Part shown: positions 3,008 to 26,119 of the stretch, piece after piece
How positions within the stretch are numbered: the first letter of the stretch is position 1
Layout of the letters: the number at the start of each line of letters is the position of its first letter
Assembly (NCBI RefSeq): GCF_018398935.1
Contig: NZ_CP074694.1
Location: 5,550,001-5,582,000 of the forward strand
Direction of reading: 5' to 3'
Length of the DNA: 32,000 bases
Origin: Telmatocola sphagniphila
GTDB lineage: Bacteria > Planctomycetota > Planctomycetia > Gemmatales > Gemmataceae
Program-made: the position numbers and the translations under genes
Notes under the pieces: model-generated
The model's input: the letters and a program-made list of their open reading frames with translations, nothing else
Told to the model about the DNA's origin: nothing
The model's database searches: none

Positions 3008-3502
3008 ATGAGCAAAACCAGCGATTTTCTGACTCAGAACTTCGGATCGGCCGTGTCGCTCTCCGAATACCGCGATAATCAGCGGGTGGTAGTGGCCTCG
3101 GCCCGGGTCTTTGAACTTCTGCAAACGCTGAAGGAAAAGCAGGGATTCGATTTGCTGTCCGATGTGACGGCCGTCGATTATCTGGAATTTCCCGGTGCCA
3201 AAGATCGTTACGGCGTGGTTTACGTGCTGACGAACACGGTCACCGGCGAGACACTTATCGTCAAAACATTTGTGAACGATCCGACTCCAAAGCTGAAATC
3301 GGTTTATTCTCTCTGGAAAGGGGCCGATTGGCTGGAACGCGAAGTTTACGATATGTTCGGCATTGAATTCGAAGGACATCCGGATCTGCGACGAATCTTG
3401 TTGCCGCAAGAGTTTGTCTCATTCCCGCTTCGCAAAGATTACCCGCTGCGAGGCAAGGGAGAACGGCATAACTTCGTGCCGTTGATTCGAGCTGAAGGAT
3501 AA
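3008..3502 (+). CDS. nuoC: NADH-quinone oxidoreductase subunit C
   Basis: [25 protein letters not shown] is the NuoC/30-kDa signature. The track ORF opens at 2864, which would overlap nuoB by 113 nt, so ATG 3008 (164 aa) was chosen. Confidence 0.9.
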
Positions 3503-3507
3503 AAAAA

Positions 3508-3553
3508 GCTGTCAGCGATCAACTAAATGAGCTTTCAGCTGTCAGCTTTGAGC
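3508..3553 (-). repeat. about 6 heptamer units in reverse orientation (nnTCAGC, the complement of GCTGAnn), partly degenerate
   Basis: Reads agc tgtcagc gatcaac taaatgagc tttcagc tgtcagc tttgagc. Starts 6 nt after the nuoC stop. Confidence 0.8.
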
Positions 3554-3647
3554 CAGGATATGCAGGCTTAACTGTCTGTGCTGGATCATCTGAGCTTTGG
3601 ATTGAAAAGGGATAGTTGAATACACGAAGAGCCGGATTCTTACATTT

Positions 3648-3766
3648 GCTGACCGCTGACCGCTGATAGCTAAAAGCTGATTGCTGACCGCTGACCGCTG
3701 AAAGCTGACCGCTGATAGCTAAAAGCTGATTGCTGACCGCTGAAAGCTGACCGCTGACCGCTGAAA
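3648..3766 (+). repeat. 17 consecutive phase-perfect heptamers of GCT[G/A]A[C/T/A][C/A/T]
   Basis: Parsed by hand: gctgacc gctgacc gctgata gctaaaa gctgatt gctgacc gctgacc gctgaaa gctgacc gctgata gctaaaa gctgatt gctgacc gctgaaa gctgacc gctgacc gctgaaa. An exact 40-nt internal duplication exists (3655-3694 equals 3704-3743). The array ends about 24 nt before the nuoD start. Confidence 0.97.
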
Positions 3767-3789
3767 GCTTGTATTTTGGAGATTGCAAC

Positions 3790-5022
3790 GTGCCTTTAAC
3801 TGCTGCCGCTCCGTATCCGGTCGACGTCGAGGATGACTCGCCAGACAAGGAATATCTCTATACCCTCAATTTCGGGCCGCAGCACCCGGCTACCCACACC
3901 ACACTGCGGTTAATCCTGACTTTGGATGGCGAGACCATCGTCAAGGCCGTGCCCGATATCGGCTTTTTGCACTCCGGCTTCGAAAAGCTCGGTGAAGATC
4001 TCGACTTCAATCAATATGTGACCATCGTCGACCGGATGAATTACATTTCGCCGATCGCCAATGAAATTGCCTGGCACAATGCGGTCGAGAAGCTTCTGGA
4101 CATTCAGTTGACGCCGCGTTGCAAGTATATCCGCACCATTATCGCCGAGCTGGCCCGTATCTCGGATCACTTGCTCTGCATCGGTGCGGTTGCCCTCGAC
4201 CTGGGTGGTCTGACGGCCTTCCTTTATGCTTTCAATGCACGCGAAGGCATCTACAACATCTTCGAAAATATGTCCGGCCAGCGCTTCCACCCCAGTTATA
4301 CTCGGGTCGGCGGCCTGATGATGGACGTCAGCGAAGACTGGATCGAGTTGATCCGCAAGTTTGTGCGAGAGTTCCCGCAGGTTCATTCGGATGTATGCCG
4401 GCTTCTGAACAAGAATCGAATATTTATTGATCGCACTAAAGGGGTGGGTGTGCTTTCGAAAGAAGAAGCCACCAACCGCAGTGCGACGGGGCCCTGTGCC
4501 CGCGCTTCCGGGGTTACTCGCGATATCCGCAAAGACGCGCCCTATCTGGCGTACAAGGATTTCGAGTTCAAGACAGTCTGTGCGAAGGGGGGCGACTGCT
4601 TCAGCCGATACCTTGTTCGCATGGAGGAGATGCGCGAAAGTCTTTCGATCATCAAACAGGCCGTGGAGAATATCCCAACCGGGCCGGTGAATGTGGACAT
4701 CGATGACCGATTGACCATTCCCGATAAAACTTCGACCTATCGCAGTATTGAAGGATTGATTCAGCATTTCGAATTGATCATGACTAATCGCCGCTGGAAG
4801 AGTCCGTTGGAAGAAGTTTACGCGGCCACAGAATCGCCCAACGGCGAACTCGGCTTCTACATTGTGGGCTCAGGCGAAGGGAAGGCGTATCGGGCTAGGA
4901 CCCGGCCGCCATCATTCATCCACTTCGCGATGTTCCCTTACTTAATTGAGGGACATCAGATTTCGGACGTCCCGGCAGTGTTGGGGTCGTTGAATATTAT
5001 TGCGGCGGAGTTGGATCGATAA
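3790..5022 (+). CDS. nuoD: NADH-quinone oxidoreductase subunit D
   Basis: NFGPQHPATHTTLRL, FHPSYTRVGG and the C-terminal VLGSLNIIAAELDR are NuoD/49-kDa signatures. The track start, TTG 3769, lies in the degenerate end of the repeat. GTG 3790 with GGAG at 3778-3781 is preferred. Confidence 0.93.
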   Translation: MPLTAAAPYPVDVEDDSPDKEYLYTLNFGPQHPATHTTLRLILTLDGETIVKAVPDIGFLHSGFEKLGEDLDFNQYVTIVDRMNYISPIANEIAWHNAVEKLLDIQLTPRCKYIRTIIAELARISDHLLCIGAVALDLGGLTAFLYAFNAREGIYNIFENMSGQRFHPSYTRVGGLMMDVSEDWIELIRKFVREFPQVHSDVCRLLNKNRIFIDRTKGVGVLSKEEATNRSATGPCARASGVTRDIRKDAPYLAYKDFEFKTVCAKGGDCFSRYLVRMEEMRESLSIIKQAVENIPTGPVNVDIDDRLTIPDKTSTYRSIEGLIQHFELIMTNRRWKSPLEEVYAATESPNGELGFYIVGSGEGKAYRARTRPPSFIHFAMFPYLIEGHQISDVPAVLGSLNIIAAELDR

Positions 5023-5025
5023 AGA

Positions 5026-5060
5026 GCGATCAGCTGACAGCTGTCAGCTGTCAGCAAGAC
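5026..5060 (-). repeat. heptamer array (gcgatca gctgaca gctgtca gctgtca gcaagac) containing a perfect 16-nt palindrome
   Basis: GCTGACAGCTGTCAGC at 5033-5048 is its own reverse complement. When phased as nnTCAGC the units are in reverse orientation. Starts 4 nt after the nuoD stop. Confidence 0.85.
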
Positions 5061-5221
5061 ATGATGCCGATTAGTTAAAATTGATAGTTGATAAAAGTTA
5101 AAATGGTACTGCTGAAAGTTAACCACTGTCGCTGATGGTTTACAAAAGCCCTGCATTCCACCGTTCGCCCTCGGTTGAAAGCAGAATCAGATAGGGCGGG
5201 AAGTTTTTAAGAGCTAGCCCG

Positions 5222-5578
5222 ATGAAAGACTTTAGATCTTTGCTCGTATGGCAAAAGTCTCATGATCTGGCATTAAAAATTTATCGGGCAACGAGTGAAT
5301 TTCCCAAGACGGAGCTTTACGGTTTAACTTCGCAGCTGAGACGTGCGGTAGTTTCTATCCCGTCGAATATTGCTGAGGGCTGTGGAAGAGGTTCCGAAGC
5401 CGATTTTGCTAGGTTTCTTCAGTTGTCGATGGGATCGGCTAGTGAAGTGGAATACCAAATCTTGCTAGGGAAAGATTTGGCTTTATTGTCGGAAACAGAA
5501 TATTTCCGATTGAATTCGGCAATTGTGGAAGTGAAGCGAATGTTATCGTCACTCATAGCCAAAATTCGAAAAGGTTGA
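5222..5578 (+). CDS. four-helix-bundle protein (23S rRNA intervening-sequence protein family; same fold family as DGR Avd)
   Basis: 118 aa. LLVWQKSHDLALKIYRATSEFPKTELYGLTSQLRRAVVSIPSNIAEGCGRGSEADFARFLQLSMGSASEVEYQILL is the hallmark of this family (PF05635/TIGR02436 from memory). It is visibly AT-rich: 20 of the first 60 nt are G/C, against 38 of 60 in a nuoD sample counted by hand. Confidence 0.88.
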   Translation: MKDFRSLLVWQKSHDLALKIYRATSEFPKTELYGLTSQLRRAVVSIPSNIAEGCGRGSEADFARFLQLSMGSASEVEYQILLGKDLALLSETEYFRLNSAIVEVKRMLSSLIAKIRKG

Positions 5579-5645
5579 ATTTTATTGGAAAGGCTTCTTT
5601 AGGGTTAGCACAGTGCTAAATCTGATTTTGAAAAGGTTTTGTATT

Positions 5646-5687
5646 GCTGATTGCTGATTGCTGACCGCTGACCGCTAATAGCTAAAT
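5646..5687 (+). repeat. 6 forward heptamers (gctgatt gctgatt gctgacc gctgacc gctaata gctaaat)
   Basis: Parsed by hand. Ends 13 nt before the nuoE ATG at 5701. Confidence 0.93.
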
Positions 5688-5700
5688 ATCGAAAGCAACT

Positions 5701-6183
5701 ATGTCTATACTCTCGAACGAGCTGCGAGAAAAGATTCAAGCGTATATCCCCCGCTACCCTAACAAGCAGGCGGTGACCTTGCCCGCATTGCATCTGGTGC
5801 AGGATGCCTTGCGCTGCGTCCCCAATGAGGCGGTACGCGAGATCGCTCAGATGCTCGATCTAGCTCCCTCGGAAGTTTACGACACCATGACCTTCTACGG
5901 CTTCTTCCGGGAAGATCATAATAAGCTCGGCAAAAATCGACTGTGGGTCTGTCGGAGTCTGGCTTGCAATCTTCGTGGCGCGGACGATCTGCTTGGCCAC
6001 TTCTGCGACAAACTGCATGTGGCCCCCGGAGAGACGACCAAAGACGGCAAAATCACGCTCGAATTCGCGGAGTGCATCGGGGCCTGCGAAGGCGCCCCCT
6101 GTGTGCTGATCAACGACGAACACGAACTGAACATCACCAACGAAAAAGCGGATCAATTAATAGCGAGATTGCAAAAAGCATAA
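5701..6183 (+). CDS. nuoE: NADH-quinone oxidoreductase subunit E
   Basis: 160 aa. Carries the 2Fe-2S (N1a) cysteines in CRSLACNLRG and ECIGACEGAPC. Confidence 0.93.
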   Translation: MSILSNELREKIQAYIPRYPNKQAVTLPALHLVQDALRCVPNEAVREIAQMLDLAPSEVYDTMTFYGFFREDHNKLGKNRLWVCRSLACNLRGADDLLGHFCDKLHVAPGETTKDGKITLEFAECIGACEGAPCVLINDEHELNITNEKADQLIARLQKA

Positions 6184-6268: not shown

Positions 6269-7597
6269 ATGTCGAATTACGAACCAATTTTGCTCGCTCG
6301 CATCGGCAAGCCCGAAAGCTATAAGCTGGAAGGTTACCGCGCCGATGGCGGCTACGAAGCGTTCCTGAAGGCTCTCAAGAATTCCAAGCCGAACGAAGTC
6401 GTCGATACGATCAAAAACTCCGGTCTGCGCGGCCGCGGCGGTGCGGGATTTCCCACTGGCTTGAAATGGACCTTTCTGCCCAAGGATCACCCGGGTCCTA
6501 TCTATCTGTGCGTGAATGCCGACGAATCGGAACCTTGTACCTTCAATAACCGCATCCTGATGGAACTCGATCCGCATCAGGTTCTCGAAGGGGTCATGCT
6601 CGCCTGCTATGCGATCAAGAGTTCCCGCGCTTACTATTACATCCGCTACGAATATGGTTTGAGCTACCGCCGTTTGCAAGCGGCCATCGATGAACTTTAT
6701 GCCGCTGGCTTGCTCGGTCAGAATATCCAAGGTTCCGGTTTCAATCTCGATATCTATCTGCACCGCGGGGCTGGGGCGTATGTCTGTGGAGAAGAAACGG
6801 GATTGATCGAATCGCTGGAAGGCAAACGGGCCTGGCCGCGCATCAAGCCGCCGTTCCCGGCCATTGAAGGGGCGTTCCGCAAGCCCACCATCGTCAACAA
6901 CGTCGAAACCCTGGCTTGCGTTACCCAAATCATGCGTCGTGGGATCGACTGGTTCAAATCGATCGGAGTGGCGCCCGATCCGAAGAATCCCCGCGATGCG
7001 GGCAGCTACGGTCCGAAGCTTTACTGCGTTTCCGGACACGTGAATAATCCCGGCTGCTGGGAATTGCCCTTAGGCGTGACCTCGAATGAATTGATTCGGC
7101 TGGCCGGCGGCGTCTGGAAGGGTCGCAAAGTCAAAGCGGTTGTGCCCGGCGGACTCAGCATGGGTTTTTTAACCGCCAATGAACTGGAAGTGCCACTCGA
7201 TTTCAACGGCCCGGGTAAAGTCGGCTGCCTCGGTCTGGGAACGGCCGCTATAACGGTGATCGACGACCAAACCAGCATGATCGACGTGCTGCACAACACC
7301 TGCCAGTTCTACGCCCACGAATCGTGCGGCCAGTGCACCCCCTGTCGGGAAGGAACTGGTTGGATGCTGAAGATCACCGATCGACTTCGCAAAGGGCAGG
7401 GGCGAAAAGAAGACCTCGATATTCTGGTCGAAGTCGCCGACCGGATTGGTATCATGCCGGGATCGACGATTTGCGGCTTGGCCGATGGAGCGGGCTGGCC
7501 AGTGAAGAATGCGATTCGCAAGTTCCGTCAGGAATTCGAAGATGCGATCAAGACCGGCCGGAGAAGCCATTTGCGTCCTTTGGCGATGGCTCATTGA
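6269..7597 (+). CDS. nuoF: NADH-quinone oxidoreductase subunit F
   Basis: 442 aa. GLRGRGGAGFPTG marks the FMN/NADH site and ESCGQCTPCREG is the N3 4Fe-4S motif. Confidence 0.96.
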   Translation: MSNYEPILLARIGKPESYKLEGYRADGGYEAFLKALKNSKPNEVVDTIKNSGLRGRGGAGFPTGLKWTFLPKDHPGPIYLCVNADESEPCTFNNRILMELDPHQVLEGVMLACYAIKSSRAYYYIRYEYGLSYRRLQAAIDELYAAGLLGQNIQGSGFNLDIYLHRGAGAYVCGEETGLIESLEGKRAWPRIKPPFPAIEGAFRKPTIVNNVETLACVTQIMRRGIDWFKSIGVAPDPKNPRDAGSYGPKLYCVSGHVNNPGCWELPLGVTSNELIRLAGGVWKGRKVKAVVPGGLSMGFLTANELEVPLDFNGPGKVGCLGLGTAAITVIDDQTSMIDVLHNTCQFYAHESCGQCTPCREGTGWMLKITDRLRKGQGRKEDLDILVEVADRIGIMPGSTICGLADGAGWPVKNAIRKFRQEFEDAIKTGRRSHLRPLAMAH

Positions 7598-7677: not shown

Positions 7678-8115
7678 ATGCGTCGATTAAGTCTGATTTT
7701 TCTGGCGCTCTGGGTCTGTACCGGCTGCAATAAGACTGCGGGAACCGCAGATAAAAAAGGGAATGTCCCGAATACTAAGGAATCCTCCGATGATCGACAG
7801 ATCTCGAATGATTTGAAGCAACTGGGACTGGCGTTTCTCAACTATACGAGTACCCAGAAGGATATGAATCCGATCACGAGCCCTTTCGTCGGATCCCTGG
7901 ATGTGTTGAAGCCCTATCTGGGGGAAAAGGAAAATCCCCGACTGGTGCCGACTCTGGAGAGCGGTAAGTACAAGATCTTCTGGAATGCACCTGCTAAACA
8001 GAGAATCCTCGCCTGCGAAAAGGATGCGGAAACCAAAGGGGGCTTAGTTCTTACTCGAATTGGCTCCGTGGAAAGAATGTCGGCGGAAGAAATTCAGAAG
8101 GCCATTGTCAAATAA
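7678..8115 (+). CDS. small lipoprotein, paralog 1 (mini DUF1559/pseudopilin-like motifs)
   Basis: 145 aa. It has a signal peptide and Cys (MRRLSLIFLALWVCTGC), with GGAG 8 nt upstream. It is a paralog of the next ORF. SNDLKQLGLAFLNY and GGLVLTRIGSVERMS resemble the NNLKQIGLAxHNY and DGSVrFis motifs of planctomycetal DUF1559 proteins (by eye). Confidence 0.75.
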   Translation: MRRLSLIFLALWVCTGCNKTAGTADKKGNVPNTKESSDDRQISNDLKQLGLAFLNYTSTQKDMNPITSPFVGSLDVLKPYLGEKENPRLVPTLESGKYKIFWNAPAKQRILACEKDAETKGGLVLTRIGSVERMSAEEIQKAIVK

Positions 8116-8135: not shown

Positions 8136-8588
8136 ATGCGTCGATTACTCTTACTCGCCTGCCTGACGGTCGCTCTCCTGGGTTGCAAGAAGGAAGCGAA
8201 GGAGACGGAACCCAAAGCTAAGGCCATGAATCCGTTCGACCGGAGTGAGAAAACAGGTAATGGCGTGATCTCCGATGTGGCCCGCGCTCCCAAGCGAACC
8301 GTGGCCCAGAACGATATGCACAATCTTCACCTGTTGATCGAAACGATCTCCGGTGCCAGCGGTAATATGCCCGATGCGAACACGATTCTGACTTCCCTGA
8401 AGCAGGATCCGGATGCCAGAAAGATTGCCCAGTATATTGAGGAAGGCTGGATAATCCTGACTGGAATAAAACAGCGGGAAGGGGTCTGGGCCTACGAAAA
8501 AGAGGCTTTGACTACCCGCGGCTTCGTGGTGACCAACAGCGGCGTGGAGATGTTGAGCAAGGAAGAGCTTCAAGCGAAGCTTCGCTGA
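8136..8588 (+). CDS. small lipoprotein, paralog 2
   Basis: 150 aa. It has a good lipobox (MRRLLLLACLTVALLGC) and GGGAGG upstream. It shares the N-terminus, a central ND(L/M)xxL motif and a C-terminal EK(D/E)AxTxxGxVxTxxGxVExxSxEE(I/L)Q with paralog 1. Confidence 0.75.
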   Translation: MRRLLLLACLTVALLGCKKEAKETEPKAKAMNPFDRSEKTGNGVISDVARAPKRTVAQNDMHNLHLLIETISGASGNMPDANTILTSLKQDPDARKIAQYIEEGWIILTGIKQREGVWAYEKEALTTRGFVVTNSGVEMLSKEELQAKLR

Positions 8589-20230: not shown

Positions 20231-22828
20231 ATGCCTACCGTCATCAATGGAGTCGGAACCTGGTATTACGGAAAGCGTAACGTTCACGGCTTCAAGTCGA
20301 TTTGCGAATTCTGCAATCGCGCGGGCGTTCTGGAATCGTACGATACGACGCTTTTCTTTGTCGTCGTATTCGTTCCCATTATCCCGCTCAATAAACAACG
20401 CATCATCAAGCGCTGCCCCAGCTGTCAGAAACATCGCGTGCTCGGTCTCAAGCAGTGGCAGAAAATAAAAAATGAAAGCGTGACGGAAGCCTTGGGTAAG
20501 GTGACTCAGAATCCGCACGACAGCGACGCCATCAGCAATGCCTTGTTGACCGCCAGCAGCTTCCAGGACGAGGAATTATTTGAAAAACTAATCGTCCTGA
20601 GCGAAGGAAAAACCGGCGATGCCAAGGTCCAGGCGGCCCTGGGCTCCGCGTACGGCTATTTCAATCGACGCGAGGAAGCGATTGAGGCGCTCAAGAACTC
20701 GCTGCGAGCCCGCGACGATAATTCGGTTCGAGAACTGCTGGCCGACAATTATCTGCGCAAAGGAGAACCAGAGAACGCGCGTCCTCTTTACCAGCACGTC
20801 TTCGATGAACGGAAGGGGGAGTCCGTCTGGCTTCCCAATAATGCGATAGAGACCTGTCAGCGGCTCGGCATGCATCAGGAAGCGCTCGAGATCATGGAGG
20901 CTCGGGAAGCCGCCTTCCCCGAATATGCGCGGCAGAAACCCTTTTTGAAACAGAAAGCGGTTTCGCAGAAAAATCTGACTACCGGTAAGCGGATCGCCAC
21001 GGCACATCTGATCGACAGCGAGCAGGTTCGCAATCGTCCTACCAGCTCGAGCCGTCGGCCTTACATCGTACTTCCGGCCATACTACTTCTCGGATTTCTG
21101 ATCTACGTCAGCATTGCTTTCTGGAAGGGGCAGAATCGCAAAATTTATCTCGTGAACGGCAGTTCCAAAGCTTACGAGGTAGCCGTGAATGGCGAGAAGG
21201 TCTCATTGAATCCAAATCGCGTGACGCCGTATACCGTTGCCGAAGGAACGGTCCGGGTCGAAGTGCCTGCCCCGGAATTGAAAATCGATGCTGTCGAAGG
21301 CCAGGTGGAAACGCCCTTCTGGGAACGGCCTTTCACCAATCCGGTCTTCGTCTTTAACCCGGATGGTCTGGGATTAATCGAGGAAGAAACCGCGACCTAT
21401 GCCCTCAATAATCCGCCCCCCAATAGCGTACCTAACGTCCATTTCGGCAAGGGATTTTATCAGCTCATCCCGGTCGACTATGAATTCGAACCTTTCCCCG
21501 CGAGCCTGACGGTGAAGGGAAGCCAGACGGTTACCAAGAAGCGGGTGTACTTCGAGCCGGTGGGTACGACCGAAGCCCTGCTCAACCGATTGGAAACTAT
21601 CCAGATACCGGCCGAGCAGATTGAACTCGCCAAACGGCGAGCCCGCTTGCAGCCCGACGATTTCGTCATGCTCGGTTGGCTGAAGCTGAAACTCCCGCCG
21701 GCTGAGATGGTGGACTTTCTCAAAGAGAGGCTCGAGGACAAGCCCATTCTGGTCGATTGGCACCGCGTCTATCAGATGTCGCGCTTTCAACTCGATCCCA
21801 AAGTCGATTTGCGTTCGGAATACGAACAGCGCGTCAAAAGTGATCCGAATCCGGATGCGAAATATTTACTCGCCCGTATTAGCGACGATCCGGAAGCCGC
21901 CCGGCTGATGGAAGAATCTTCGAAGAGTACGCCGCCCTCGGCGTATTCCCAGTATTCGCTCGGTTACCGCTATCTTGCGCTCGGGCAATTTCCCGAAGCG
22001 ATTCAATGGCTCGACTCCGCCGTGAAGCTCAAGCCCGCCAATGTGCAGTTTCAAAATGTCCTCTGGAATGCGTATCTGGCCGCCGGGCAATACGATAAAT
22101 TTCAGTCCGCTCTCGATCAGTCGAACGCCACAGCACCCACTGCTAGACTGTTATTGAAACTCCAGGCGGCCGCGCGGAAAAATGATCTGGTTCTGATGCA
22201 GAATCTGAGAAATCAATTTACGGCTCTGGTTCGGGGACCTGTTGCGAACCCGGCTATGAATCCTGCCCTGGCCAAACTCAATCAGGCGCTCGATTTGACC
22301 GTGGCCCTGGCGGCGGGAAACATCAATCGTTTCATGGCTCTGAGTCGCGACGTCGAAAGTCAATCGACCTTTGCTTATCAATTTCTGACCGAGAAATATC
22401 AGGAAGCTTCGACCTACATCGATGCCCGCGATGGGCGATCGGCGATTGAATATTGGGGCTTGTTGAATCTGGCCGCCCGCAAAAAGAAGAATCAGATTCT
22501 GGAGAACGAGTCCTGGAAGCAACTTCAGGAGTTGATGTCCCACGAGGATCGACAGCTGGCCCGGGCCGCTGAGCTGCTGAAGTCGAACGATGAATCGGCA
22601 CCCAAACAACTGCTAAATCTGTACGTCGAACCCGACATTAAGCGAGTGTTGCTTCTGATTGCGGCGGATCGCACACCCAATCAAGCGACGGAACTACGAA
22701 CCTTGGCGTTGAAGCTCAACTATATGCCGGATGTCACTGCGCTTTGCATAAAGAAAATCAGCGATGAGAAACCCGCCGTTAAACTCCCCCGCCGGCCGGA
22801 TATCAAGTTGCCCGACAAAAAGCCTTAA
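20231..22828 (+). CDS. large membrane protein: split 4-Cys zinc-ribbon-like N-terminus, TM segments, TPR-like helical repeats
   Basis: 865 aa. C25-x2-C28 and C62-x2-C65 flank a hydrophobic segment (TTLFFVVVFVPIIPL). A second TM lies near residues 285-305 (YIVLPAILLLGFLIYVSIAFW). TPR-like A/L/Y-rich repeats occur at both ends. No family was recognised. Confidence 0.8.
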   Translation: MPTVINGVGTWYYGKRNVHGFKSICEFCNRAGVLESYDTTLFFVVVFVPIIPLNKQRIIKRCPSCQKHRVLGLKQWQKIKNESVTEALGKVTQNPHDSDAISNALLTASSFQDEELFEKLIVLSEGKTGDAKVQAALGSAYGYFNRREEAIEALKNSLRARDDNSVRELLADNYLRKGEPENARPLYQHVFDERKGESVWLPNNAIETCQRLGMHQEALEIMEAREAAFPEYARQKPFLKQKAVSQKNLTTGKRIATAHLIDSEQVRNRPTSSSRRPYIVLPAILLLGFLIYVSIAFWKGQNRKIYLVNGSSKAYEVAVNGEKVSLNPNRVTPYTVAEGTVRVEVPAPELKIDAVEGQVETPFWERPFTNPVFVFNPDGLGLIEEETATYALNNPPPNSVPNVHFGKGFYQLIPVDYEFEPFPASLTVKGSQTVTKKRVYFEPVGTTEALLNRLETIQIPAEQIELAKRRARLQPDDFVMLGWLKLKLPPAEMVDFLKERLEDKPILVDWHRVYQMSRFQLDPKVDLRSEYEQRVKSDPNPDAKYLLARISDDPEAARLMEESSKSTPPSAYSQYSLGYRYLALGQFPEAIQWLDSAVKLKPANVQFQNVLWNAYLAAGQYDKFQSALDQSNATAPTARLLLKLQAAARKNDLVLMQNLRNQFTALVRGPVANPAMNPALAKLNQALDLTVALAAGNINRFMALSRDVESQSTFAYQFLTEKYQEASTYIDARDGRSAIEYWGLLNLAARKKKNQILENESWKQLQELMSHEDRQLARAAELLKSNDESAPKQLLNLYVEPDIKRVLLLIAADRTPNQATELRTLALKLNYMPDVTALCIKKISDEKPAVKLPRRPDIKLPDKKP

Positions 22829-24019: not shown

Positions 24020-25534
24020 ATGAGCACTCTGAATCTGAATCTCTCTCCGGATCTCAAAGCATACTTTGCCGAAGAGCGCCGAGCGATCGACGAATCCTGT
24101 CGGTTACCAGTGCTGGTTTTTTTCGGCAGCGCGTTGGTCTGGTTGATTGTCGGCACACTACTCGGGTTAACCGCTTCGCTGAAGATGCACACGCCCGATT
24201 TTCTCGCCGACCATAGCTGGCTGACCTTCGGACGAATTCGACCGGCGCATTTGAACATGGTCACCATGGGCTGGGCGTCCAGCGCGGGCCTCGGTTGTTC
24301 CATCTGGTTGATGTGCCGTCTGTCGCGAATTCCTTTGATCTATCCCCGCATTCTTTTGATTGCCGCACTATCCCTCAATCTCGGGATGATTATCGCGCTC
24401 GTGGGAGTTCTCTCGGGATTCAGTCAGGGGGTGGAATGGCTGGAGCCGCCCCAGATTGTAGCGCCCTTCATGACTACCGCTCTCGCCCTCGTCTCGGCCT
24501 GGCTTATCGCCACACTCAGGAAACGGCGGGAAAAACACATCTACGTCACCCAATGGTACATCTTCGGCGCAATGTTCTGGATGCCCTGGATGTACACGGT
24601 CGCCCAACTGGTAATTTTTGGTATTCCGGGAGTGATGGATCCTGCTCGCGGCGTCGTTCAAGCCACCTGCAACTGGTGGTTTGCCCACAATTTTCTCGGC
24701 CTCTGGCTGACTCCGATCGGGGTCGGCGCGGCCTACTATATCATCCCAAAAATTGTCGGCCGGCCGGTGTATAGCTATCACCTGAGCATCATCGGATTCT
24801 GGGCTACCGCACTTTTCTACAGCTGGGTGGGCATGCATCATCTCATCGGTGGGCCGCTGCCGGCCTGGATGGTGACCGCCTCCATCGCCGGTTCCATACT
24901 GATGATCATCCCGGTGATGGCCGTGGCTCTCAATCATCACATGACCATGTGGGGTCATTTCCAGCAGCTGGTCTACAGCCCGGCCCTTCGCTTCGTCGTA
25001 TTCGGAGCCATCACTTATACGGCCGTCAGTATTCAAGGTTCGTTCGAAGCGTTACGCGATATGAACGTTATTACGCACTTCACCCACTACACCATTGCGC
25101 ACGCGCATCTCGGGGTCTATGGCTTTTATTCCATGGTGATGTTCGGCACCATGTATTACATCGTGCCGCGCTTGACCGGCGTGGAATGGGCATCGGCCAA
25201 ATTAATTCGCCTGCATTTCTGGAGCACATCTTTCGGCATAACCATCTATTACACCAGTCTGACTTTAGGGGGCTGGTACCAGGGACAAGCCCTGATTGCT
25301 GTAAACGAATTGAATCAACCGACTCCCTTCATTGAAATCGTACGCTACACGCAACCGTATCTGATCGGCCGCAGCATCGGCGGCTCCCTGATGGCTATCG
25401 GCCATTTCGTATTTGCCTATCTGTTCGTAGTTAATGTCTGTCGCTTGGGGCCGGTCAATGGGGGGCCGACTTATTTTGTGCCGCATGCTCAACCTTTAGC
25501 GGTCAGCGATCAGCAGTCAGCGGTCAGCTATTAG
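24020..25534 (+). CDS. ccoN: cbb3-type (C-family) heme-copper oxidase subunit I, orphan
   Basis: 504 aa and polytopic. FGRIRPAHLN carries the low-spin heme His. WWFAHNFLGLW carries a CuB His (compare WWYGHNAVGF). FYSWVGMHHL carries the cross-link Tyr and the HH CuB ligands (compare YIWAGPHHL). TIAHAHLG carries the heme b3 and heme b His residues (compare GHVH). Confidence 0.88.
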   Translation: MSTLNLNLSPDLKAYFAEERRAIDESCRLPVLVFFGSALVWLIVGTLLGLTASLKMHTPDFLADHSWLTFGRIRPAHLNMVTMGWASSAGLGCSIWLMCRLSRIPLIYPRILLIAALSLNLGMIIALVGVLSGFSQGVEWLEPPQIVAPFMTTALALVSAWLIATLRKRREKHIYVTQWYIFGAMFWMPWMYTVAQLVIFGIPGVMDPARGVVQATCNWWFAHNFLGLWLTPIGVGAAYYIIPKIVGRPVYSYHLSIIGFWATALFYSWVGMHHLIGGPLPAWMVTASIAGSILMIIPVMAVALNHHMTMWGHFQQLVYSPALRFVVFGAITYTAVSIQGSFEALRDMNVITHFTHYTIAHAHLGVYGFYSMVMFGTMYYIVPRLTGVEWASAKLIRLHFWSTSFGITIYYTSLTLGGWYQGQALIAVNELNQPTPFIEIVRYTQPYLIGRSIGGSLMAIGHFVFAYLFVVNVCRLGPVNGGPTYFVPHAQPLAVSDQQSAVSY

Positions 25535-25570
25535 CTAGTAGCGGTCAGCGATCAGCGATCAGCGGTCAGC
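25498..25570 (-). repeat. 10 heptamers in reverse orientation (ggtcagc gatcagc agtcagc ggtcagc tattagc tagtagc ggtcagc gatcagc gatcagc ggtcagc)
   Basis: Parsed by hand from 25501 and phase-perfect. The first five units encode the last residues (AVSDQQSAVSY) and the TAG stop of the ccoN-like ORF. Confidence 0.95.
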
Positions 25571-25630
25571 ATTGAATAAACCATTGCCTTTGGTCAGTAA
25601 CGCTTGAGCGTGAACAATTAGCATTTCCTA

Positions 25631-25651
25631 GCTGAAAGCTGAAAGCTGAAA
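25631..25651 (+). repeat. 3 forward heptamers (gctgaaa x3) plus a degenerate fourth
   Basis: gctgaaagctgaaagctgaaagctctat. It abuts the stop (25655) of the convergent 154-aa gene. Confidence 0.9.
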
Positions 25652-25654
25652 GCT

Positions 25655-26119
25655 CTATATATCCTCCTCAATCAATATCGGCTGACGGTCGGTCCGGGTC
25701 ATCACCCGGTAGTAGCGGGAAGGCTCCTTGCAGACGACGTAAACGTGCGGGATCTGATTTTGATCGCGAACCAGTATTCCCTGTATTCCCTGCCGGACGG
25801 GGTACCAGACGCCGTTGGCTAAAGCGAGATTTGCCAGGATGCGCACTCCTTCCGGCTGACAATTTCCCCAACGTCCTTCGTCGAGACTCTGTTTCCAGGT
25901 CCAGCCGGTTTGCGGCAAAGCACAACGGCGGTCGATATTGCCCCAGGGGACGATTTGAAACTCTCCTTCGTACCAAATCGGTAGCAAGCGCACGGCGTCC
26001 AGCCAGAGAAAACGAAACTCCTGGATGCCCGGCCCGCGCGAGTAGAGCCGTTTACGCAGTCGGAAGCGTTCGACCAGCTCGGGCGGAATTTCGCATTCGA
26101 GAAGTGCCACGCCGTTCAT
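25655..26119 (-). CDS. hypothetical 154-aa protein translationally coupled to the UmuC-like polymerase; possibly a degenerate SRAP-like fold
   Basis: Its ATG shares one base with the polymerase TGA (TGATG at 26117-26121). Motif resemblance to the SRAP in this window, by eye: EFQIVPWG versus EIARLRWG; LANGVWYPVRQ versus PADGFYEWKQ; VVCKEPSRYYRVMTRTDRQPILIEE versus IVTTEASEIIKPLHERMPVMVEPE. It lacks Cys2, the Glu in the DGxxEW-equivalent motif and the His in the HxRMP-equivalent motif; no NARxE-type motif is recognisable. Confidence 0.7.
   Translation of the reverse strand: MNGVALLECEIPPELVERFRLRKRLYSRGPGIQEFRFLWLDAVRLLPIWYEGEFQIVPWGNIDRRCALPQTGWTWKQSLDEGRWGNCQPEGVRILANLALANGVWYPVRQGIQGILVRDQNQIPHVYVVCKEPSRYYRVMTRTDRQPILIEEDI

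Follow-up and report, generated by a model that had tools for sequence, protein, structure and literature searches.

An ORF-less inverted-heptamer module in the nuoC-nuoD spacer of Telmatocola sphagniphila and its likeness to cassettes carrying 23S rRNA intervening sequence proteins

How do tandem seven-nucleotide repeats come to lie between two genes of the nuo operon, and of what larger unit are they a part? The question is raised by the nuoC-nuoD junction of the planctomycete Telmatocola sphagniphila, studied here within 32,000 nt of contig NZ_CP074694.1 (assembly GCF_018398935.1, positions 5,550,001 to 5,582,000 of the forward strand), which is called the window in what follows and is numbered from its first letter. 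To our knowledge, tandem heptamer arrays (STRR, long simple-sequence repeats, TAACTGA, GGGAATC) have no accepted origin or function, and likewise we know of no function for the S23p/IVP family despite two crystal structures and thousands of members. By IVP we mean the PF05635/TIGR02436 four-helix-bundle protein of 23S rRNA intervening sequences. The nuoC-nuoD feature is best described as an expanded member, lacking an open reading frame (ORF), of a family of inverted-heptamer modules associated with IVP genes, a link that ties together two old puzzles, the bacterial heptamer repeats and the IVP protein family. The initial annotation of this DNA had seen in the nuoC-nuoD spacer an outlier among the nuo junctions, and its interpretation is partly supported. 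The arrays are not peculiar to this junction; the build recurs twice more in the window and is found in many phyla, and its complete form brackets a PF05635 gene.

The spacer measures 287 nt, the length first given to it, from the end of nuoC at 3502 to the GTG start of nuoD at 3790, with a GGAG at 3779-3782. The module that occupies it (module 1) consists of three parts:

3503..3553, plus strand: 5' arm of module 1, a degenerate (nnTCAGC) array of about 6-7 units with a slip at 3531-3532, directly 3' of the nuoC TAA at 3500-3502
3554..3647, plus strand: core of module 1, 94 nt, no ORF
3648..3769, plus strand: 3' arm of module 1, 17 GCTGAnn units and a terminal partial GCT, with a 49-nt higher-order period

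Parsing of positions 3648-3766 confirmed the 17 consecutive 7-nt units with zero phase slips that had been noticed at first sight; 15 of them are GCTGAnn, with CC, AA, TT or TA as the variable dinucleotide, and two are GCTAAAA, and the partial GCT follows at 3767-3769. The exact 40-nt duplication also holds (3655-3694 equals 3704-3743), and Tandem Repeats Finder reports a period of 7 with 16.7 copies together with a higher-order period of 49 with 2.5 copies and 90% matches. Such exact 49-nt copies inside the array point to replication slippage or unequal exchange as the likely source of its length. The opposing array, first described as about six units at 3508-3553, is indeed present but extends over 3503-3553 and reads AAAAAGC TGTCAGC GATCAAC TAAATGA gc TTTCAGC TGTCAGC TTTGAGC, that is, two blocks of about three units split by a 2-nt phase slip, with a perfect TCAGC core in three units only. 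At its other end the module stops 9 nt before the GGAG of nuoD and 20 nt before the GTG, and its 3' arm carries stop codons in all three forward frames, since the reading GCT GAn nGC TGA puts a TGA in each. Pfam identifies nuoA, B, C, D, E and F in the window. No Rfam family and no rRNA was found in the whole window at gathering thresholds; the modules sit between protein-coding genes, and the window holds no tRNA or tmRNA gene. A promoter and terminator scan of 3300-5900 returned nothing beyond shuffle expectation, and thus the nuoC-nuoD spacer is not an obvious internal promoter or intrinsic terminator.

The three-unit pattern GCTGANNGCTGANNGCTGA, with at most one mismatch allowed, has 29 matches in the 32-kb window against 0.00 expected from 100 dinucleotide-preserving shuffles. 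All 29 are confined to three intergenic places, namely the nuoC-nuoD spacer, the surroundings of an IVP gene between nuoD and nuoE, and the region after a COX1 gene, and each place is ordered as (nnTCAGC)n, core and (GCTGAnn)n. The parts of the second and third modules are as follows:

5023..5055, plus strand: 5' arm of module 2, AGAGC GATCAGC TGACAGC TGTCAGC TGTCAGC, directly 3' of the nuoD TAA at 5020-5022
5222..5578, plus strand: IVP (S23p) four-helix-bundle gene, 118 aa, in the loop of module 2
5646..5687, plus strand: 3' arm of module 2, GCTGATT twice, GCTGACC twice, GCTAATA and GCTAAAT, ending 13 nt before the nuoE ATG at 5701
25494..25570, plus strand: 5' arm of module 3, 11 in-phase units of nnTCAGC type
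25571..25630, plus strand: core of module 3, 60 nt
25631..25654, plus strand: 3' arm of module 3, GCTGAAA three times and a partial GCT, abutting the stop codon of a convergent minus-strand ORF at 25655-26119

Module 2 is a complete cassette that lies 1.2 kb downstream of module 1. Its gene matches PF05635 (1.8e-39, '23S rRNA-intervening sequence protein') and TIGR02436 (1.1e-39, 'four helix bundle protein'), and its product matches the protein XCC0516 of PDB entry 2GSC (8e-21). The range first given for the other nuo junctions, overlaps up to 85 nt, therefore stands for all but one, the 678-nt nuoD-nuoE junction, which holds this second array pair around the extra gene. An enclosed PF05635/TIGR02436 ORF is what sets module 2 apart from module 1, where none is present. 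Module 3 has a COX1-family gene on one side and a convergent ORF on the other, and each of the two stop codons adjoins an arm that reads nnTCAGC in the sense of its own gene. It was also seen that the last 12 codons of the COX1-family ORF (24020-25534), LAVSDQQSAVSY, and its TAG stop are encoded by the nnTCAGC array at 25496-25534, which indicates that the native 3' end of this gene has been extended or replaced by the array.

The association with IVP genes extends beyond the window. We sampled 80 metagenomic loci (L129-L208) that encode relatives of the window's IVP, and a period-7 array was counted when it contained at least three exact 5-mer units. By this measure an array is present within 300 nt upstream at 59/74 loci, in the stretch from 40 nt ahead of the stop codon to 200 nt past it at 61/76, and on both sides at 48/70, against a background of 0.19 arrays per kb at more than 600 nt from the IVP gene. 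In most cases the upstream arm is TCAGC and the downstream arm GCTGA. Other pairs co-vary as reverse complements (TCAGA/TCTGA, TAAGC/GCTTA, TGAGC/GCTCA, TTAGC/GCTAA, GTAGT/ACTAC and TCAGT/ACTGA), and one cassette, L146, has arms of TAACTGA type. Reverse-complementary arms are found in 45/54 cassettes, and when only cassettes without TCAGC are considered the figure is 13/17, where 1.9 are obtained with arms permuted between cassettes. Heptamer type also tracks IVP clade, indicating that gene and arms are inherited together. The two are joined even at the level of coding, for the first GCTGAnn units encode the common IVP tail ..L(K/R)A(D/E)R* and the TGA of a unit serves as the stop codon. Arms of these cassettes typically have 4-5 units on both sides and a modal length of 26-35 nt; relative to this usual arm the 17-unit array of module 1 is an outlier.

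The insertion point of the IVP cassettes shows a preference as well. IVP is co-oriented with its upstream neighbour at 56/69 loci and with its downstream neighbour at 48/59, and the gene upstream of the cassette stops with TAG in 29/45 cases (64%) against 19% in the background (p = 5e-11). In 12/45 cassettes the first full unit begins 1 nt past this stop, giving TAGC-nn-TCAGC. Usually the TAG of the upstream gene opens such a junction, which looks as though the element brings the stop codon with it or aims for it. Among more distant IVP genes, the one in L023 (3830-4420) has inverted heptamers GGTTGnn/nnCAACC on both sides and the one in L008 (4190-4660) has inverted hexamers TAATCC/GGATTA on both sides. 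In L104 (1600-2182), a segment of about 70 nt, composed of a 3' arm and then a 5' arm, is directly duplicated on either side of the IVP gene, and this looks like a recombination or insertion footprint. No Telmatocola paralogue of the window's IVP was found among the best 120 IVP homologues. Most contigs with close IVP homologues are only 0.5-2 kb long; such short contigs fit flanking repeats that break metagenome assemblies, and the genomic context of the family is probably under-sampled.

Starting instead from the arrays, an exact four-unit pattern was searched in contigs of one genome per species, where it occurs in at least 120 stretches. The matches listed are mostly from Acidobacteriota, with others from Chloroflexota, Verrucomicrobiota, Planctomycetota, Cyanobacteria, Omnitrophota, Poribacteria and Bacteroidota. 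Adjacent arrays among the listed loci follow the order 5' arm to 3' arm in 32 cases and the reverse order in 6 (p = 2e-5), the cores between them measure 5-419 nt, and array length peaks sharply at 4 units. An IVP gene is present in 5/120 of the array-selected loci listed, so that gene-less modules far outnumber IVP-bearing ones in this sample. Two ORF-less modules, L027 and L143, have kept a 3' remnant of an IVP gene just before the 3' arm, so that some ORF-less modules at least have arisen from IVP cassettes by deletion.

The history of the nuo modules is best seen in related genomes. Four relatives were compared, two uncultured Gemmataceae (83-84% NuoD identity), a Zavarzinella metagenome-assembled genome and Tuwongella immobilis, with an overall NuoD identity of 78-84%, and the termini of their NuoC and NuoD correspond to those of the window. 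Their nuoC-nuoD spacers are 3, 14, 27 and 153 nt and their nuoD-nuoE spacers 171, 18, 57 and 13 nt, and neither heptamer arrays nor an IVP gene is found in either spacer of the four. Modules 1 and 2 are thus lineage-specific insertions into formerly tiny spacers, which explains why they take up the whole of each spacer between stop codon and ribosome-binding site. Since the orthologous spacers of the four Gemmataceae are free of arrays, the idea of a conserved regulatory element of nuo is rejected. Unit number continues to change. Two environmental contigs with an identical IVP and otherwise near-identical sequence have 5 and 2-3 units in the 3' arm of module 2, where the window has 4; differing counts among copies of one locus show that the arrays change unit number quickly. 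Short-read contigs of T. sphagniphila stop inside modules 1 and 3, and an additional 17.5 kb of flanking sequence contained no further arrays.

Repeats of other kinds were seen in nuo spacers of the relatives. L125, an uncultured Gemmataceae, has a tandem repeat of about 37 nt in about 4.5 copies between nuoD and nuoE (5234-5404), and L126, also an uncultured Gemmataceae, has long inverted repeats around small inserted ORFs (5714-5984 and 6471-6652), one of them with a DUF433 domain. The nuo spacers of Gemmataceae seem to be recurrent landing sites for repeats.

What would the two arms do in a transcript? The initial annotation had observed that the arrays are partly complementary and could form a hairpin, and had proposed folding of the spacer RNA as a check. 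The 5-nt cores are complementary, and in the minimum free energy fold of the module 1 spacer RNA the 5' arm is paired with units of the 3' array at -91.2 kcal/mol (z = -3.4, with 0/200 shuffles as stable). In module 2, 5023-5055 is predicted to pair with 5646-5687 and to enclose the IVP ORF (z = -5.4). In both modules, then, the predicted folds have terminal inverted repeats able to form a stem. The part in RNA processing, stability or uncoupling of translation that was suggested at first is plausible when 23S intervening sequences cleaved by RNase III are taken as the model.

We hold with moderate confidence that the nuoC-nuoD spacer contains an ORF-less copy of an IVP-cassette module whose arms pair into an interrupted stem that is processed or insulating. 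The course of events is as follows. A two-arm module entered the formerly tiny nuoC-nuoD spacer in the Telmatocola lineage, and its 3' arm, normally of 4-5 units, has grown to 17, probably by slippage or unequal exchange. In the polycistronic nuo transcript the arms would pair as a long interrupted stem of 5-bp GCUGA:UCAGC helices and 2x2 internal loops. By analogy with the heptamer-containing terminal stem of IVP-bearing 23S intervening sequences that is cut by RNase III, this stem probably has a processing or insulating role through which an operon can tolerate the insertion. The 5' arm is open in every reading frame, so that the upstream gene can finish in or beside it, as the COX1-family ORF does, and the 3' arm stops all three frames just ahead of the start site of the next gene. 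Predicted folds, arms that co-vary from one heptamer type to the next, the modal arms of 26-35 nt and the RNase III precedent together make such an interrupted RNA stem, processed or at the least insulating, the most likely means by which a promoter-less IVP cassette is tolerated in operons and in rRNA. The module itself is most likely a neutral or mildly modulating passenger and not a dedicated nuo regulator.

Several observations weigh against this account and are gathered here. The arms of module 3 pair in the predicted fold, but at z = -1.45 the fold does not surpass that of shuffled sequence. Among the listed loci, opposite arms have variable dinucleotides that are complementary in 32% of cases against 31% by chance, which means that any stem consists of 5-bp helices split by 2x2 internal loops; a perfect palindrome or full duplex is ruled out by the same chance-level figure. 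The asymmetry between G.U and C.A (28/186 against 17/120) gives no strand-specific RNA signal, a result that fits symmetry at the DNA level equally well. The two arms of module 1 are unequal, about 6 degenerate units facing 17. The core of module 1 does not resemble the IVP gene or the untranslated stretches of module 2 to any significant degree, and a six-frame profile search together with short blastn found no significant IVP remnant in either of the window's two ORF-less cores; there is a faint reading '..KSRILTFADR*', in frame with the opening units of the 3' arm, that cannot be scored. Descent of these two modules from an IVP cassette would therefore be argued from family resemblance only, and their cleavage by RNase III would follow from analogy only. 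The sample of 80 IVP loci consists of the nearest relatives in a single subfamily (50-70% identity), and more distant IVPs are represented only by L008, L023 and the literature cases.

Given the absent G.U signal and the free 2-nt spacers, a DNA-level or protein-binding explanation, with the pentameric IVP as the obvious candidate, has to be taken as a serious rival. It supposes that the arrays are DNA or RNA binding sites (for IVP, or for S1, Csp or CsrA as proposed for TAACTGA) that regulate translation of nuoD or mobilize the cassette, the pairing of the arms being incidental. Conservation of the 5-nt core alone, the mirror symmetry of variant cores at the DNA level and the co-variation of IVP clade with heptamer type would all be expected of it, and the arms of 4-5 units invite comparison with the five chains per entry in which the IVP homologues 2GSC and 2RLD crystallize, a protein of this family having been described as a homopentameric toroid (PMC4990558). 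In addition, 3' arms finish a few nt upstream of start codons, as for TAACTGA (PMC4679880), and the IVP relative Avd is a nucleic-acid-handling cofactor of the reverse transcriptases of diversity-generating retroelements (PMC10053308). However, the binding itself is that of a candidate only, in the sample selected by arrays ORF-less modules are far more numerous than IVP genes, and a purely translational role leaves the mirror-image 5' arm after stop codons unexplained. We therefore rate this explanation as rather improbable in spite of its merits.

An ordinary simple-sequence repeat, grown by polymerase slippage on a chance GCTGAnn seed and having neither element identity nor function, is less probable again. 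Slippage is evidently active, as the 49-nt exact duplication and the unit-number differences between strains show, and seeds are at hand, for nuoC of the window and nuoC of the relative L125 both end with a single GCTGA; as far as the summary of Mrazek et al. (2007) given in PMC4679880 goes, heptanucleotides are also the most abundant class of long simple-sequence repeat. What slippage leaves unexplained is the arm in opposite orientation, the build of 5' arm, core and 3' arm at three sites of the window and in many phyla (32 against 6 in reverse among listed loci), the modal length of 4 units and the association of about 80% of IVP genes with arrays. Pairing of the arms and bias of orientation are, moreover, already seen in the sampled loci.

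The initial annotation had likened the spacer to REP/BIME elements, and this likeness was not borne out by their defining features. Like REPIN-RAYT and REP-BIME systems, the modules are dispersed intergenic inverted doublets that form hairpins, and one protein gene is flanked by repeats while gene-less copies far outnumber gene-bearing ones; they are multicopy, and they break short-read assemblies. Yet the units are tandem 7-nt direct repeats and not palindromic REPs of 20-40 bp with a GTAG/CGTC head, the enclosed gene is not an HUH transposase, and Pfam scanning of 20 window ORFs detected neither a transposase nor a RAYT domain. The one gene that the arrays regularly enclose encodes a helical bundle of 118 aa without a known catalytic fold. 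A target-site duplication is not discernible because the terminal AGCT is itself palindromic, and in comparison with MITEs (miniature transposable elements with inverted repeats) inverted arms are present but no parent insertion sequence was found for the modules. A REP/BIME- or MITE-type element moved by a transposase, whether RAYT or encoded by an insertion sequence, is accordingly very unlikely. Least credible of all is a phase-variation switch in which unit number tunes nuoD expression, because, even if unit number differs between closely related strains at the neighbouring module 2, the array lies outside coding sequence, a change of +/-7 nt alters neither the nuoD frame nor the distance from ribosome-binding site to start, and module 3 sits between convergent genes with no downstream gene.

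The interrupted-stem module finds its nearest precedent in rRNA. The 23S intervening sequence of Coxiella burnetii contains an S23p (PF05635) ORF and a 28-bp terminal stem, its tandem GACAGAT heptamers differ in number between strains, and it is excised by RNase III with the 5' cut mapping to the start of the first repeat (PMC4990558). Module 2 resembles the 23S intervening sequences of Leptospira and Coxiella in having a PF05635 ORF in the loop of an inverted-repeat stem. Unlike these, the window modules are located in spacers of mRNA operons and not in helix 25 or 45 of 23S rRNA, their stems are broken by a 2x2 mismatch every 5 bp whereas the Coxiella stem is nearly perfect, and most copies, including module 1, have lost or never had the ORF.

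Other heptamer arrays share one or another of these features. The window arrays are tandem heptanucleotide units in intergenic DNA, just as STRR are, although their unit is GCTGAnn and their host a planctomycete, whereas the host of STRR1-3 is heterocystous cyanobacteria. STRR heptamers were reportedly described in 1990, when Mazel et al. are said to have given the STRR1-3 units as CCCCAGT, TTGGTCA and CAACAGT. The analogy with STRR that had been drawn initially proved apt in an unforeseen way: a GGGGATT array of STRR type, 129 nt long, begins 1 nt after alr0548 and ends 55 nt before, thus directly upstream of, the Nostoc gene alr0549 (PMC4692102 supplement), whose product is annotated as a four-helix-bundle protein (PMC8491059) and belongs to the family of the IVP enclosed by module 2. 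Rehm et al. (2015) described GGGAATC arrays in Xanthomonas, where 70-75 inverted pairs are convergent, as well as GGGGA(C/T)T arrays in Nostoc (PMC4692102). In their supplement, a 4-unit GGGAATC array lies 6 nt from bccP and overlaps the start of XCC0516, which encodes the 2GSC protein, and an array is placed in the same way at XAC0531 (PMC4692102 supplement). These too are tandem intergenic heptamers, but unlike GCTGAnn the units are G-rich, were read as formers of G-quadruplexes and belong to different hosts, and the association of the arrays at XCC0516, XAC0531 and alr0549 with IVP was not remarked on (PMC4692102).

The TAACTGA repeats of Beggiatoaceae, Cyanobacteria and Bacteroidetes (MacGregor, 2015; PMC4679880) are alike in arrangement. 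They are period-7 direct repeats, mostly intergenic, placed in forward orientation just upstream of starts and in reverse after stops, and their forward orientation has stops in all three frames; their patchy distribution across phyla likewise suggests horizontal transfer (PMC4679880). The nuoC-nuoD array agrees with them in being a forward array near a start codon with stops in three frames. The unit differs, GCTGA(CC/AA/TT/TA) having the CTGA core alone in common with TAACTGA, and the TAACTGA sets are described as single direct arrays with just one inverted pair and without any link to four-helix-bundle genes (PMC4679880).

Searches of the freely available full-text literature, subscription-only literature being outside our scope, turned up no paper that connects PF05635/TIGR02436 genes in general with heptamer arrays, and heptamers beside S23p were met only in the Coxiella intervening-sequence paper. 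Both the GCTGAnn repeat family and the general association of IVP with arrays thus appear to be undescribed. A wider generalization may be put forward tentatively, as a possibility that we ourselves regard with some doubt. IVPs with inverted short-period arrays would form an unrecognized class of promoter-less, horizontally spreading cassette that inserts in rRNA and at the stop codons of genes that are transcribed; ORF-less modules, including much of STRR, TAACTGA and GGGAATC, would be non-autonomous derivatives or targets; and the arrays would be what IVP works on, through binding or through spread by way of RNA or cDNA. Should repeats and IVP belong to a single cassette, what is learned of one limits what the other can be: the repeats would be arms of an element, and the protein would have a candidate partner among nucleic acids. 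In practice, the modules interrupt assemblies from short reads, lengthen neighbouring ORFs or furnish their ends, and are inserted into essential operons.

A few minor observations in the same stretch remain to be mentioned. A period-7 run GCGATGG GCGATCG GCGATTG at 22428-22446, inside a TPR-protein ORF (20231-22828), is unrelated in sequence to the GCTGA family and probably reflects chance or coding. Two ORFs of 145 and 150 aa (7678-8115 and 8136-8588) between nuoF and nuoG match nothing in Pfam or NCBIfam; similar ORFs without annotation, 144-225 aa long, occupy the same nuo place in the relatives L125-L128, and these may be lineage-specific accessory genes of complex I. Finally, with a TTG start and 179 aa, the longest nuoA ORF (1862-2401) exceeds the NuoA called in the relatives (143-151 aa) by about 30 aa, and the true start of nuoA is probably further downstream than this TTG.

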